From: Candidatus Xenobia bacterium
GTDB lineage: Bacteria; Vulcanimicrobiota; Xenobia; Xenobiales; QWHO01
Direction of reading: 5' to 3'
Length of the DNA stretch: 42,147 bases
NCBI GenBank assembly: GCA_045863235.1
Contig: BTUM01000069.1
Coordinates: 1 to 42,147 of the forward strand
Shown: piece after piece, positions 23,738 through 28,881 of the stretch
How positions within the stretch are numbered: the stretch's first letter is position 1
Layout: each line of letters begins with the position of its first letter
The notes under the pieces: generated by a model
What the model was told of the DNA's origin: nothing
Databases searched by the model: none
Seen by the model: only the letters and a program-made list of their open reading frames with translations
Position numbers and translations under genes: made by a program

Positions 23738-24376
23738 ATGCTCGGTTACATTCGAGGGCTGCCTCTTTTCAACCCGGCCGCCAAAGAGTTCTACAAGGGC
23801 TATGACGAGGCCCTCAAAGGGCTGGATGAGACGCGCGACCTGGCCCTCAAGGCCAAAATGCCCGACGAGGACATCGCCGCCCTCGACCGTCACAAACTTG
23901 CCCTCAAGGCCGACGTGAAAAAGAGCAAGATGGCCGACACGCTGGTCACGCTGGGTCGGCCCTTCATGGAGGGCGCGCCCATCGCCTTCACCGCCTCCCT
24001 GTTCATGGGCTGGGGCACCTTCGGCATTCCGGGCAACGCCGCCATCCTGGTGGGCTGCTCGCTGGCCACCTTCGCCGGCCTGGCGCTGTTCGTCAAGGGC
24101 GTCAAGATGGGCCGCAACTGCTCGCCCCAGAACGCCTTCCAGAACGTCAGCCTGAGCGACCGCCTCCGAGTGGGCAACCTGATGAAGCACGGCACGGAAG
24201 TGCTCAAGATGGCCGCCACCCTGACCCCGGGCGCCACCGCCCCGGCCATCTCCCAACAGGCCAACCGCATGGTGATCGGCGGCGTGGTCATCAAGCGCCG
24301 ACCTGACGGCCAGCACATCGCCGACTCGGTCAACGCGCCCGAAAAACCCGAGCCGGGGGGCTTCTTCAGGCCCTGA
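23738..24376 (+). CDS. Hypothetical two-TM protein with C-terminal IGGV motif
   Basis: Hydrophobic hairpin in the middle; TACACT 6 nt before ATG; AISQQANRMVIGGVVIKRR. Confidence 0.75.
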   Translation: MLGYIRGLPLFNPAAKEFYKGYDEALKGLDETRDLALKAKMPDEDIAALDRHKLALKADVKKSKMADTLVTLGRPFMEGAPIAFTASLFMGWGTFGIPGNAAILVGCSLATFAGLALFVKGVKMGRNCSPQNAFQNVSLSDRLRVGNLMKHGTEVLKMAATLTPGATAPAISQQANRMVIGGVVIKRRPDGQHIADSVNAPEKPEPGGFFRP

Positions 24377-24590
24377 GCGTCTGCTCGAGCGCGCTGCGGG
24401 CCTCCTGCATCTTTCCCTGACGCAAGAGCTCGATGGCCGGCGAGTCGACCAGTTTGTGCCAAATCTCGCGCCGCTCAGAGAAGCTGGCGTAGCCTGCGGC
24501 GATCTCGGCGCGAAGCTCGGGGGCCATGTCCGGCCCGAGCTCCTCCCGGAAGCGCTCGCGGGGGGGTTCAGCAGGACGGGGATCGCTCAT
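24366..24590 (-). CDS. 74-aa protein resembling the C-terminal helical region of precorrin-2 dehydrogenase/siroheme synthase
   Basis: ATGA coupling with cysE stop; ERREIWHKLVDSPAIELLRQG. Confidence 0.5.
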   Translation of the reverse strand: MSDPRPAEPPRERFREELGPDMAPELRAEIAAGYASFSERREIWHKLVDSPAIELLRQGKMQEARSALEQTLRA

Positions 24591-25438
24591 ATGGCAAAGT
24601 CCACGTCGCCGGGCAGGAACTCGCCGTTGGGCCCGCTGCCGCGCGGACGGGCCAGCACGCGCAGGTTGGGCGGTTCTTGCGCGACCAGGCGCCCGGGCGG
24701 AACGCTCCTGGTGAGAAAGACCGAGCCCCCCACCACGCTCCCCTGGCCCACCACAGTACGCCCTCCCAGCACGGTGGCGTGAGCGTAGACCACCACGTCG
24801 TCCTCCAGGGTGGGATGGCGGGGGCGCTCTCGAGTGAAGCTCAACGCCCCCAGCGTCACCCCCTGGTAGAGGCGCACCCGGTCGCCCACGCGGGCCGTCT
24901 GGCCGATCACCGTTCCGGTGGCGTGATCGAGAAAGAAGCTCTCCCCGATCTCGGCACCCGGGTGGATGTCGGCGCCGGTGCGGGAGTGGGCCCATTCGCT
25001 CAGGATGCGAGGCAGGGTGGGCACTCCGAGCTGGTGCAGCCGGTGGGCGATGCGGTAGACGGTGATGGCCAGAAAGCCGGGGTAGGCCAGGATCACCTCA
25101 TCCAGGCTGGTGGCGGCCGGGTCTCCCTCGAGGGCGGCCCGGGCGTCGAGCAGGAGCCGGCGGCGCAGTTCGGGCAGGAACCGCAAGAATTCACCGGCCA
25201 GGGCGGGGTCGGCCCCGCACAGGCCAACCTGGCGCCCCAGGCGCTGCTCGAGCTCCTCCAGGTGAGCCTCCAGGTCGACCGGTTGCTCTGAGAAGTAGCC
25301 GGGCAGGACGATATCGAGGATCAGCTCGAGCAGCGCCTCCGCCTCGCGGGGAGAGGGGCGCTGACCCGGCTCCGGAGGGTTGAGACGAAGCTGCTCGGCC
25401 AGATCCCTCAGGTCGTTGACCACGGCCCGGGAGCTCAC
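24587..25438 (-). CDS. cysE: Serine O-acetyltransferase
   Basis: [43 protein letters not shown]-terminal DFAI, the Ile-ending tail that docks CysK. Confidence 0.92.
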
Positions 25439-26430
25439 GAGGCCACCGCCTTCTCGACCTCGTCAAACAGGCCCTCGAAGAGGGCCCCGCTGAGGTAGCG
25501 CTCGGCCGCGTCGGGCAGAACCACCACGATGGTCTTGCCCTCGAAGCGCCGGTCGCGGGCCAGGCGCAGAGCAGCCACCGTGGCCGCGCCCGAGGAGATG
25601 CCGGCCAGAATCCCCTCCTCGCGAGCCAGTCTGCGGGCCATGTCGAGTGCCTCGTCGTTACTCACCGTCTCCACCTGGTCCACCAGCGAGAGATCCAGGT
25701 TGCCGGGCACGAACCCGGCCCCGATGCCCTGGATCTTGTGGGGCGCGGGGCGCACCTCCTGACCGGCCAGGGTCTGCGTGATCACGGGGGAGTGGGAGGG
25801 CTCCACCGCTACCGAGTGCAGCGCCTGACCGCGGGTGTGCTCGAAGTAGCGACTCACGCCGGTGAGGGTGCCGCCGGTGCCGATGCCGGTGACCAGCACG
25901 TCGGTCCGCCCTCCGGTATCCTGCCAGATCTCCGGTCCCGTGGTGCGCTCGTGGATGAGTGGATTGGCCGGGTTATCGAACTGGCGGGTCAGAAAGTAGC
26001 GGCCCGGATCCTCCGCGGCCAGCTGCTCGGCCCGGTCGATGGCCCCCTTCATCCCCAACGTCCCGGGCGTGAGCACCAGCCGCGCGCCCAGGGCCACCAG
26101 CACCTTACGACGCTCCAGGCTCATGGTCTCGGGCATGGTCAGCACGCACTCCAGTCCGCGGGCGGCGGCGGCGAAGGCCAGGGCGATGCCGGTGTTGCCG
26201 CTGGTGGCCTCCACGATGGCCCGGCCGGGGCCGAGCAGCCCTTTCTCCTCGGCGTCCCACACCAGCGAGGCCCCGATGCGACACTTGACCGAATAGGCCG
26301 GGTTGCGCCCCTCGATCTTGGCCAGCAGGGTGGCCCGGGTCCCCCCCACCACCTTGTTGAGAGCCACCAGGGGCGTGCGCCCGATACTCTCGGCGTTGTC
26401 GGAATAGACGTTGGGATAAACTTTCAGCAT
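25435..26430 (-). CDS. cysK: Cysteine synthase A (O-acetylserine sulfhydrylase)
   Basis: [52 protein letters not shown] before ATG 26430. Confidence 0.95.
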
Positions 26431-26552
26431 GATGTCGCTTCCTTTCTTTGGGGAGGGTCTTGAGAAACTCGACCCGATGCGCGTTGTGGTACATGGGATG
26501 GAAGCGGCTCGGCGGGCCTGCCTGGCTGCTTCGGCTTTTGTGGCTCTTGCAA
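26424..26552 (-). CDS. Putative 42-aa uORF overlapping the cysK start
   Basis: GAGGAGG 8 nt before TTG at 26552; ends ...KEATSC-TGA within ATGCTGA. Confidence 0.35.
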
Positions 26553-26580
26553 TCTGGGGTCCTCCTCGGGTCGCCGGTGT

Positions 26581-26622
26581 CTGAAGAAACACGAAGGCCC
26601 CCAGGAATCATCCTGGGGGCCT
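26581..26622 (-). terminator. Attenuator terminator of cysK leader
   Basis: Perfect 12-bp stem AGGCCCCCAGGA-N4-TCCTGGGGGCCT (26595-26622), then TCGTGTTTCTTC on the minus strand. Confidence 0.8.
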
Positions 26623-26650
26623 CGAGACCGCGACTCTGGGTCGGGTTTAG

Positions 26651-26758
26651 CTAACTTTCCCTCAGGTGAATCCTGCGTCGGGCGTGGGCGCGACAACAAC
26701 AGAGGGAAACGGAGCAGCAGAACGCAGACCGAGATTCGACGGAGCTTCTACCACTCAT
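26651..26758 (-). CDS. Cysteine-rich leader peptide MSGRSSVESRSAFCCSVSLCCCRAHARRRIHLRES (35 aa)
   Basis: Hand translation; TGC TGC and TGT TGT TGT runs; lies between a promoter and a terminator upstream of cysK-cysE. Confidence 0.85.
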   Translation of the reverse strand: MSGRSSVESRSAFCCSVSLCCCRAHARRRIHLRES

Positions 26759-26765
26759 GGCACGA

Positions 26766-26795
26766 ACAGTAACACAGGCCCGGGAAAGCTGTCAA
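26766..26795 (-). promoter_or_regulatory. Sigma70-type promoter for the cys leader (leaderless transcript)
   Basis: TTGACA (26795-26790), 18-nt spacer ending TGT, TACTGT (26771-26766), 7 nt, ATG. Confidence 0.7.
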
Positions 26796-27226
26796 GCTGA
26801 GCCAAGCTGAAGACGGGTCCAGGCCACGATCTGGGGAGCCTGCATGAAGCCCGAGTGGCGGGCTACTTCCCGACCGGAGCGAAACAGGATGAGGGTCGGG
26901 ATGCCCCGGATGCCGAGCGAGCGGCTGATGGCCGGGAAGGCCTCCGTATCCAGCTTGGCGAGGCGAACCTCGGGCTCGAGCTGACCCGCCGCCTGCTCGA
27001 ACTGGGGAGCCATCATCTGGCAAGGCCCGCACCATTCGGCCCAGAAGTCGACCAGGACGGGAATTTCGTTGCGCTGCAGGTGCCGTTCGAAAGCGCCCTG
27101 GCCGTTCAGAACCACGGGGTGAGCAGCAAACAGCGTGTTCTGGCACTTGCCACAAATCGGGCGGTCGACCAACCGCTCGCTCTGGACCCGGTTCACCGCT
27201 TCGCAGTGGGGACAGACAATGTTCAC
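26792..27226 (-). CDS. trxC: Thioredoxin 2 with N-terminal zinc finger
   Basis: CPHC...CGKC plus WAEWCGPC and GIPT; exact start uncertain. Confidence 0.9.
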   Translation of the reverse strand: MNIVCPHCEAVNRVQSERLVDRPICGKCQNTLFAAHPVVLNGQGAFERHLQRNEIPVLVDFWAEWCGPCQMMAPQFEQAAGQLEPEVRLAKLDTEAFPAISRSLGIRGIPTLILFRSGREVARHSGFMQAPQIVAWTRLQLGSA

Positions 27227-27345: not shown

Positions 27346-28881
27346 TCAGAAGGACGACACCGTGATGGTAAAGGTGGCGACCGTGTTGTTCTGGAGTTGG
27401 GACGACACGTTCCCCTCGTTGTCAGGAGCCAGGCCGTACTGGAAGGTGACGCCCGTCCCCGGGCAGCCCGCGCTGGGCTCCGTCGGACCCAGGCTGTTCT
27501 GGTGCAGGATCTTGGAATACTGGTTGACCACCGGCACCTGGGCCGAAGTCACGTAGAAGTTCGCCGGGGTGAAGTCGGGCTGGCCGGGAGTGACTGCGGT
27601 GAAGGGGATACAGGACGGGCTGGTGTTCTTGTTGAGCAGGGTGCCTCGATTGAGCCCGACGGCCAGGATGTCGTTGATACGACTGGCCGGACCGCCGGCC
27701 GCGGTCTTGAGCGTCAGTACACAGGCAAAAGCGGCCGTAGAATCGGGTTTTGCGAAGGTAACCGCGGCGCCCCCGCCCTGCGGCGTGAAGGTCCAGTCGC
27801 CCGAGGCCGGGGCGGCCGCTGCCGTGTAGGTGCCAAACCCGTAGGTATTGAGGGAGGGGATCGCCTTGCCCCACTGGTTGTTGATACTTGCAGCCAGGAC
27901 ATTGGTGGGAAAGCCGGCGCTGATGGCCTCCTTTCTCCAGGGAGCCAGCAGGCGAATCGGGGTCTGGCCGTCCATGACGATCAGCTTGTTCCAGGGGGCG
28001 CCCAGAGCCTGGACGGCCTGGAAGATCTTCGTCCTTCCCCCGGCATCGATCCCCACCTTGGGCGGGAACCAGCCTCCCACGTTCTGCTGGTTGGCGGGGG
28101 TGGTCTGGATGATGAAAGGGAGCGAGAAGGCGTCCACGCAGGTCGTGTTGGCGACCAGGGTGGGGCTGGTGTAGGTGTACTCCACGAAGTCGAACAGCTG
28201 CTTCGAGCTGTAGGAAGGCGCCAGCTCCCAGCCCGAGAAGCTCAGATCGCCCTTGGAGAAGTAGACCCGCCCCAGGGCCTGGAAGGCCGGCAGGCTCAGG
28301 CTCTTCGTGCCCTTAGCGGGAATCGTGGCCACGCTGGGCACATTGAGCCCCGAGGTGTAGGCCTTCACCGCGCCGCTTGCCTCCATGTAGGATTGCGTTC
28401 CATTCAGAACCCCAAAGACATAAACGTTCAGGGGGGTGGACGAGTTGTTGACCAGCGTCGTGGGAAGCGTGGCGCCGGCCTGAACGTGCTCGGCGAAGAC
28501 GTTGACACTCTCGCCACCATCGCTCAAGTCGACCGGAAGCCTGGCTCCGTGCCGCAAGATCTGCCCCTCGCCGTCCGGGTCCGGTGCGTAGTATTCGATG
28601 CGGAGCAGCGTGACCGAGGTGGGCACGATCAGCTCGTGGACCTCGCCTTCCGGGAGCTGCTGGGTAAACACCTCGTTGCCCGCGGCGTCCTCTCCGGTGT
28701 AATGGTATTCGGTCACGTCCTCGACGATGAAGTCCTCATCATTTTCATGCCGAACCTGCACATTGGAGGCGAGCATGGGCACGGCGTTGCCGTTGATCGT
28801 CAGGGTGTCTCCTCCGGTGCAGCCCATCAGGCAGGCTGCCAGCACCAGCAGTGAGGTCTTCGCGGCACACAAGCGTTTCAT
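27346..28881 (-). CDS. Lipoprotein with C-terminal GH64-like beta-1,3-glucanase domain
   Basis: Lipobox LAACLMGC; GRVYFS, FDFVEYTY...NTTCVDAFSLP, GLNRG, NQYSKILH. Confidence 0.7.
   Translation of the reverse strand: MKRLCAAKTSLLVLAACLMGCTGGDTLTINGNAVPMLASNVQVRHENDEDFIVEDVTEYHYTGEDAAGNEVFTQQLPEGEVHELIVPTSVTLLRIEYYAPDPDGEGQILRHGARLPVDLSDGGESVNVFAEHVQAGATLPTTLVNNSSTPLNVYVFGVLNGTQSYMEASGAVKAYTSGLNVPSVATIPAKGTKSLSLPAFQALGRVYFSKGDLSFSGWELAPSYSSKQLFDFVEYTYTSPTLVANTTCVDAFSLPFIIQTTPANQQNVGGWFPPKVGIDAGGRTKIFQAVQALGAPWNKLIVMDGQTPIRLLAPWRKEAISAGFPTNVLAASINNQWGKAIPSLNTYGFGTYTAAAAPASGDWTFTPQGGGAAVTFAKPDSTAAFACVLTLKTAAGGPASRINDILAVGLNRGTLLNKNTSPSCIPFTAVTPGQPDFTPANFYVTSAQVPVVNQYSKILHQNSLGPTEPSAGCPGTGVTFQYGLAPDNEGNVSSQLQNNTVATFTITVSSF

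Follow-up and report, generated by a model that had tools for sequence, protein, structure and literature searches.

The DNA upstream of cysK and cysE in the window analyzed here, a stretch of 42,147 nucleotides from Candidatus Xenobia bacterium (contig BTUM01000069.1), very probably encodes a transcription attenuator that is operated by the ribosome and responds to charged tRNA-Cys, as judged from sequence comparison and folding models. According to the proposed mechanism, transcription would begin with the A of the ATG at 26758 (minus strand), and a ribosome would load onto the leaderless message. When cysteine is plentiful, this ribosome would reach the stop codon and cover codons 28-36, including the antiterminator strand, such that the hairpin could form and transcription would end near 26587. 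When Cys-tRNA is scarce, stalling on UGU codons 20-22 would cover segment 1 of the leader; 26675-26659 could then pair with the terminator arm and loop as these emerge, and polymerase would continue into cysK-cysE. Should the ribosome be absent, or stall upstream of codon 14, formation of the protector would make termination the default outcome. The recurrence of the same layout at least 40 times, mostly before sulfur genes, suggests that the ribosome likely switches these genes on when cysteine is short. The features of the locus, in order of transcription, are as follows.

26792..27220, minus: trxC-like thioredoxin gene, the upstream neighbor (NF008229, 124.8 bits against a cut-off of 125); the neighbor differs in the same-genus genome G004
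26790..26795, minus: -35 box TTGACA of the predicted promoter, invariant in all four aligned genomes
26766..26774, minus: predicted extended -10 box TG-N-TACTGT; TATCGT at the same spacing in G004
26651..26758, minus: leader ORF of 35 codons, predicted leaderless (ATG at about +1); 35 codons in G001 and G002, 32 in G004
26712..26756, minus: 5' hairpin, -18.9 kcal/mol by folding, predicted in G004 too
26714..26719, minus: Cys14-Cys15 (TGC TGC), lost in G004
26702..26709, minus: protector 5' strand (segment 1), which changes jointly with its partner in G004
26693..26701, minus: Cys20-22 (three TGT), the likely sensor; invariant alignment columns, with a modelled terminator probability of 0.00-0.03 when the ribosome is there
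26659..26675, minus: antiterminator 5' strand, within codons 28-34
26656..26663, minus: protector 3' strand (segment 2), pairing with segment 1 and overlapping the antiterminator strand
26602..26619, minus: antiterminator 3' strand, comprising the terminator 5' arm, the loop and the start of the 3' arm, as folded
26595..26622, minus: terminator-like hairpin of 12 bp with loop TGAT, from a terminator scan and folding
26586..26595, minus: interrupted U-tract, 5 U in 8 (6 U in 8 in G004); predicted RNA 3' end near 26588-26586
26424..26567, minus: Shine-Dalgarno GAGGAGG (26567-26561), then a frame of 42 codons (26552-26424) that opens with TTG and overlaps the cysK start with its stop
25435..26430, minus: cysK, cysteine synthase A (TIGR01139, 423 bits, cut-off 351)
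24587..25438, minus: cysE-like serine O-acetyltransferase gene (TIGR01172, E 2.6e-45, 154 bits, under the cut-off of 211)
24366..24590, minus: short ORF matching the siroheme synthase dimerization region only (PF10414, E 1.1e-10)

Much of this anatomy had been described in an earlier, sequence-only reading, and at the level of promoter and ORF that description was borne out. The TTGACA box (26795-26790) overlaps the trxC stop codon and is followed after an 18-nt spacer by TACTGT (26771-26766) and, 7 nt further on, by the ATG, which is not preceded by a Shine-Dalgarno sequence. The ORF ends in TAG (26653-26651), contains eight Ser codons, and carries both the CC and the CCC runs previously described, the latter written in a codon, TGT, that is indeed disfavored, accounting for 14% of the Cys codons in the genes of the window genome. 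A consensus promoter scanner made no call at the leader promoter. Within the same genome, the motif TANNNT lies 5-8 nt before the ATG of 189 of 2583 first genes, as compared with 34 at 15-18 nt (crude gene calls), and it peaks genome-wide at 6-7 nt, a position that makes leaderless starts plausible in this organism. Short ORFs of the leaderless type, with a -10 box at 5-8 nt and at least five of six matches to the -35 box, number eight in the whole 8.36 Mb genome, and two of the eight contain CCC; among ATG starts in this genome, no conspicuous leaderless leader for Trp, His, Phe, or Met was seen.

Both the promoter spacing and the TANNNT peak fit an RNA start at the start codon, the arrangement characteristic of leaders of the mycobacterial Ms5788A type. 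Parts of the region are also present in eight RNA runs, all as low-depth assembled Logan contigs that are uninformative as to start, end, strand, or level. One such contig consists of the leader alone (26745-26591, depth 2.8) and another, from a different study, has one end at 26751 and extends into cysK (depth 20); together these provide a weak hint of a start near 26758 and of an attenuated leader. Two contigs (X3 and X7) span the promoter from trxC, which could reflect read-in from that gene or carry-over of DNA. The position 26727, at which two contigs end, was considered as a transcript end and discarded on account of a strain difference at 26726.

The mutually exclusive helices were likewise recovered, with all four segments lying where the sequence-only reading had placed them and duplex energies of -10.8 kcal/mol for segments 1 and 2 and -9.8 kcal/mol for the 8-mer formed by segments 3 and 4. 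The antiterminator proved longer than that 8-mer, in that 26675-26659 pairs with 26619-26602 at -21.4 kcal/mol. The terminator stem of 12 bp also stands, with the qualification that it consists of 11 Watson-Crick pairs and a 12th, A-U pair that is made by the first U of the tail (-28.3 kcal/mol with flanks). Behind the G-C stem the tail reads TTCGTGTT, broken at positions 3-4. This hairpin is the sole terminator-like site in 26300-27200, a count that alone is not rare (shuffle mean 1.1), and the fold of the leader as a whole beats 200 of 200 shuffles (z -4.1). The 5' hairpin, which begins at nucleotide 3 of the predicted RNA, could hinder leaderless ribosome loading, and may act as a pause signal or as a limit on re-translation. 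To call the attenuator complete, as was done earlier, overstates the case, as the U-tract is weak and the start site, translation, termination, and response to cysteine are predicted. Identity as a riboswitch or T-box was rejected, the leader matching no Rfam model up to an E of 5 and the window genome yielding no T-box.

Among the checks proposed alongside the original description were folding under constraints that mimic the ribosome footprint and alignment of leaders from relatives. For the former, the first 13 nt beyond the P-site codon and all RNA before them were masked, and folding was done at the point at which six terminator pairs can form. Modelled in this way, the terminator has a probability of 0.98-0.99 with the ribosome on codons 2-12 and of 0.8 on codons 13-14 or when the ribosome is absent; the value falls to 0.00-0.03 when the A site is on codons 15-26, and is 0.96-0.99 on codons 28-36. 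Shuffling of the part that follows the Cys codons gave a switch of at least 0.5 in 3 of 60 cases. The switch at codons 20-22 is fragile: with footprints of 10-19 nt it operates when the exposed RNA extends to 26603 or 26601, is mostly lost when exposure reaches 26599, and disappears at 26596, the terminator then prevailing in every state; similarly, equilibrium folding of the full leader never favored the antiterminator. Loss of the switch at fuller exposure implies that, in the model, it must be kinetic, and classical attenuators are held to be kinetic switches. An antiterminator that excludes the terminator and is freed by stalling at the sensor codons is thus seen in silico at the nucleation stage only, and the model shows that the geometry is suitable, with function lying beyond its reach.

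Alignment of relatives lends further support. The leader is nearly unchanged in the same-genus genomes G001 and G002, and in G004, the CysK of which is 91% identical, all helices are kept, as are the spacing of the promoter and the ORF, here of 32 codons with CCCC-P-C. Read by eye, two protector-core pairs in G004 are changed on both strands, one terminator pair is changed on both sides from A-U to G-C, and the antiterminator is still complementary to the loop GGATGAT, this covariation being that of a single diverged homolog and the four-genome alignment being out of register in the switch region. Cys20-22 are conserved in four of four aligned genomes. In G003, the fifth genome of the genus (64% complete), an orthologous cysK was not found. 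Together, conservation, gene context, and folding models support the core of the mechanism first proposed, in which a stalled ribosome permits read-through.

Two subsidiary proposals fared less well. The CC pair (Cys14-Cys15) makes a weak candidate for the main sensor, since it is absent in G004 and a modelled stall at Cys14 leaves the terminator in place at shorter footprints. A role for serine, the substrate of CysE, was rejected: the G004 peptide has four Ser and, outside the Cys run, nothing in common with the window peptide; a Ser run is absent from the other leaders; and modelled stalls on codons 2-12 keep the terminator. As regards lineage, the earlier impression that the DNA is not actinobacterial is upheld by a tree of 38 chosen CysK rows, in which the window protein groups (97/87) with CysK of the same order and with a record titled Vulcanimicrobiota. 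A CysK 97% identical to that of the window occurs in a record titled Burkholderiales, which conflicts with the tree and may be a mislabel. As the tree covers a single mobile gene, it makes Vulcanimicrobiota the probable phylum.

In G004 the leader heads a longer series of genes, namely those for sulfite reductase and a tetrapyrrole methylase-like protein (by eye), followed by cysH, cysK, and cysE. The window operon has likely shrunk to cysK-cysE with retention of the leader, the ORF at 24590-24366 is likely a truncated cysG, and the 42-codon frame at 26552-26424 is likely a remnant of a deleted block running from sulfite reductase to cysH. The G001 and G002 versions of this frame have PSKV in common with the start of the G004 sulfite reductase (by eye); BLAST of the frame against the G004 operon was not significant, and no NIR_SIR (sulfite reductase) match was found in the window genome. 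No Cys frame was found before this genome's own cysS. Upstream of trxC, an ORF at 27346-28881 (minus) encodes a predicted lipoprotein-like protein of 511 aa with no NCBIfam match.

Leaders of this kind are spread across the phylum. Pattern searches covering 40 genomes from the order and 401 from the phylum, followed by fetching, frame-checking, and tRNA-anchored searches, recovered at least 47 leaders in at least 31 genomes, comprising at least 40 of terminator type and at least seven with no terminator; these totals are lower bounds, as the pattern searches probably missed leaders. A promoter-free Cys pattern gave mostly noise, with 16 of 35 regions having a -35 box and a short ORF and the other 19 being dropped for lack of a -35 box, for a long ORF, or for lack of an in-frame match. 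Among the 40 terminator-type leaders listed, 28 precede clear cysteine, sulfur, or methionine genes: cysK in eight cases (one named from its start at a contig end), cysH in three, sulfite reductase in two, cysE and cysG in one each, tRNA-Cys directly in seven, tRNA-Cys with a sulfate permease further on in two, and sulfonate-type and MetN-type ABC transporters in two each. Plausible genes follow another six of the 40 (a NIL-domain protein and other binding proteins, two each; a FAD flavoprotein and a nitrogenase-like pair, one each), and for the remaining six the downstream gene belongs to no family. As a control, a sulfur gene was found behind none of nine scanned look-alikes that have no -35 box. 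When modelled, 30 of 35 leaders, kin among them not being independent, switch by at least 0.5 at the Cys run, as compared with 168 of 1140 shuffles (15%); the five that do not are L153, L211 minus, L215, L217, and L224. The device is patchy, and most cysK genes are without one: a leader lies within 1.5 kb of 5 of 110 cysK loci (one leader being divergent and another repeating the L002 peptide), and within family f15 the figure is 3 of 29, query included (30 loci less one from an unpublished genome).

Several individual loci merit mention. One leader (L207:393-3312) precedes two nitrogenase component 1-like genes, which we presume may encode a methylthio-alkane reductase for sulfur scavenging. 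Leaders L147, L148, and L223 (and also L224, L156, and L215) stand before proteins with no Pfam family, for example a protein of 105-109 aa, and these are candidates for new sulfur functions; a search of the ESM Atlas with the 105-aa protein gave no match at or above 0.9. In G270 and G322, two divergent or nearby leaders (L211 and L212) lie about 2 kb apart, and each heads a unit resembling one for sulfur uptake. In genomes of family f3 (L027 and L028), a divergent Rrf2-like regulator ORF adjoins cysK, seemingly in place of a leader (by eye).

It might be argued that Cys codons are sensed in the manner described and that the hairpin acts only as a pause site or weak terminator, release requiring a factor such as Rho, NusA, or NusG. 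Such an arrangement would suit the interrupted tail, the window genome encodes a Rho protein over the family cut-off, and Rho control has been proposed for actinobacterial cys leaders (PMC1262725, in the portion available). We nevertheless regard it as unlikely. Tails with six to eight U in eight positions occur in 19 of 24 phylum leaders of one modelled set, and likewise in G004 and G005, and only 38 of 146 strong downstream hairpins of the window genome, many of which are possibly not terminators, have at least 5 U in 8, which places the tail of the cysK leader in the upper range. Set against what defines an intrinsic terminator, the cysK leader offers a strong hairpin and a weak, interrupted tail, with stronger tails in G004 and in most other leaders.

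The leaders with no terminator bear on a second alternative, namely that the switch controls translation or RNA stability by altering access to the Shine-Dalgarno sequence at 26567-26561. Four of these leaders precede a peptidase C26 (gamma-glutamyl hydrolase-like) gene (L175:4755-4833, L142, L143, and L149). The first, at G000:C7:49332 (minus), is the second leaderless poly-Cys ORF of the window genome; in silico, the ribosome site of the next gene is paired with the Cys codons of this ORF and is opened by a stall, the unpaired fraction rising from 0.1 to 0.4-0.7 here and in three relatives. Three others (L146, L150, and L151) stand before genes for an mtnB-like aldolase II and a UPF0047 protein, and have stable hairpins, no U-tract, and no ribosome-site switch that could be found in the model. 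The mycobacterial Ms5788A leader acts translationally as well, according to the accessible part of its description (10.1101/834739). At the cysK leader, by contrast, the Cys codons are predicted to lie inside the protector helix instead of pairing with a Shine-Dalgarno sequence, and the modelled alternative helices involve the terminator and not the ribosome site.

A further argument against translational control comes from seven leaders of the same layout that precede tRNA genes, which have no ribosome site. In family f15, a leader and terminator stand directly before a second tRNA-Cys gene (L208, L214, L234, L236, L237, L238, and L274). A tRNA-Cys pattern derived from such leader-gated copies matched in 6 of 61 genomes of the family, and a Cys-rich leader and hairpin lie upstream in all six (one leader having C-x-C-x-C and two having CC plus C). 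The gated gene is taken to be a second copy because a tRNA-Gly, tRNA-Cys pair is found elsewhere in five of the five such genomes tested. In the window's own class, a leader was found at none of nine tRNA-Cys loci, and none precedes the tRNA-Cys of the window genome itself. Control through access to the Shine-Dalgarno sequence at 26567-26561 is, on balance, highly improbable.

Composition of the leader peptides addresses a third possibility, that free cysteine or thiol redox state causes the nascent peptide to arrest the ribosome. Nascent-peptide arrest of ribosomes is known from peptides of the TnaC type; here a thioredoxin gene adjoins the leader and the peptide is nearly invariant in three genomes. 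Beyond the Cys run, nothing is common to the peptides phylum-wide or to those of the window and G004. Moreover, TGT makes up 81 of the 105 Cys codons in 19 accepted leaders (a hand count; the phylum-wide pattern applied to the 401 genomes required a TGT) versus 14% in genes, and such a preference implicates decoding speed or RNA pairing rather than the sequence of the peptide. An arrest peptide is accordingly a slimmer prospect still. That the hairpin merely terminates trxC and the ORF is incidental is scarcely credible, for while no further terminator-like site lies between trxC and cysK and RNA-library contigs span trxC and leader, the promoter, ORF, and helices are kept in G004 with no trxC alongside, CCC occurs in two of the eight strong leaderless short ORFs, and the layout recurs elsewhere, mostly before sulfur genes.

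With transcription attenuation by the ribosome as the preferred reading, we propose, with moderate confidence, that a phylum-wide cysteine "ribulon" independent of transcription factors exists in the Vulcanimicrobiota, in which unrelated leaderless Cys frames would gate sulfate assimilation, sulfonate and methionine uptake, the nitrogenase-like pair, and spare tRNA-Cys genes, acting by termination at most loci and by occlusion of the ribosome site at others within one genome. If so, the tRNA-Cys leaders would constitute a ribosome-read feedback in which too little charged tRNA-Cys induces further synthesis of tRNA-Cys, and unknown proteins encoded behind leaders would be marked as having new roles in sulfur scavenging. 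The leader likely offers a view of the control of sulfur metabolism in a mostly uncultured phylum, can serve as a tag that assigns unknown genes to sulfur supply, and provides, in 170 nt, a compact test case for transcription attenuation by cysteine. A literature search in which few subscription journals were covered turned up neither leaders of this kind in the phylum or ahead of tRNA-Cys genes nor a second tRNA-Cys copy attenuated by way of Cys codons. In Clostridia, tRNA genes have reportedly been found under T-box control, and the Lyubetsky group is said to have published a comparative survey of attenuators in 2010.

The suggestion that a cysteine attenuator of this kind looks undescribed does not survive comparison with known systems, at least two of which come close. 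In 2020, a classical transcription attenuator for cysteine was stated never to have been described, the authors' own case being translational (10.1101/834739, in the part available). The same source, as far as its accessible text extends, reports that leaderless poly-Cys ORFs are proven in mycobacteria, that Ms5788A is translational with the mode at other loci undetermined, and that in Mycobacterium tuberculosis such a frame, Rv2334A, precedes cysK1-cysE. The window leader resembles this mycobacterial "Cys ribulon" in its leaderless ORF of consecutive Cys codons, in the presence of several independent loci per genome, and in the cysteine genes behind them, once the same cysK-cysE pair. Ms5788A, however, hides the next Shine-Dalgarno sequence and does not terminate transcription, whereas the window leader has a terminator and an antiterminator, and its Cys run lies 13 codons before the stop, unlike the Ms5788A type.

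Another is uORFC-8-2 of the Rhodobacterales, which combines tandem Cys codons with an intrinsic terminator and is likewise predicted to attenuate by way of the ribosome (PMC8632094, in the sections seen). There, two Cys codons, mostly UGC, are found only before cysS and in Alphaproteobacteria; the phylum leaders have at least three, chiefly UGU, and precede many sulfur genes, and the gene downstream in the window is cysK, not cysS. Cys-codon leader peptides have also been predicted before actinobacterial cys operons (PMC1262725), and these share the runs of Cys codons upstream of cys genes and differ, in the portion of that work available, in having no conserved terminator. The available portions of PMC13236596 and PMC2965389 hold nothing further on Cys terminators.

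Finally, the window leader shares with trpL of E. coli and hisL of Salmonella, as summarized in the accessible part of 10.1101/834739, a short ORF with a run of codons for the end product, a series of protector, antiterminator, and terminator, and biosynthetic genes behind, here Cys20-22 followed by cysK and a cysE-like gene. It differs from them in sensing cysteine, in its predicted leaderless start where theirs employs a Shine-Dalgarno sequence, in its weak U-tract, and in an antiterminator strand that lies inside the ORF. The kind of attenuator is thus already known, and it is the cysteine specificity and the likely leaderless start that set the window leader apart.
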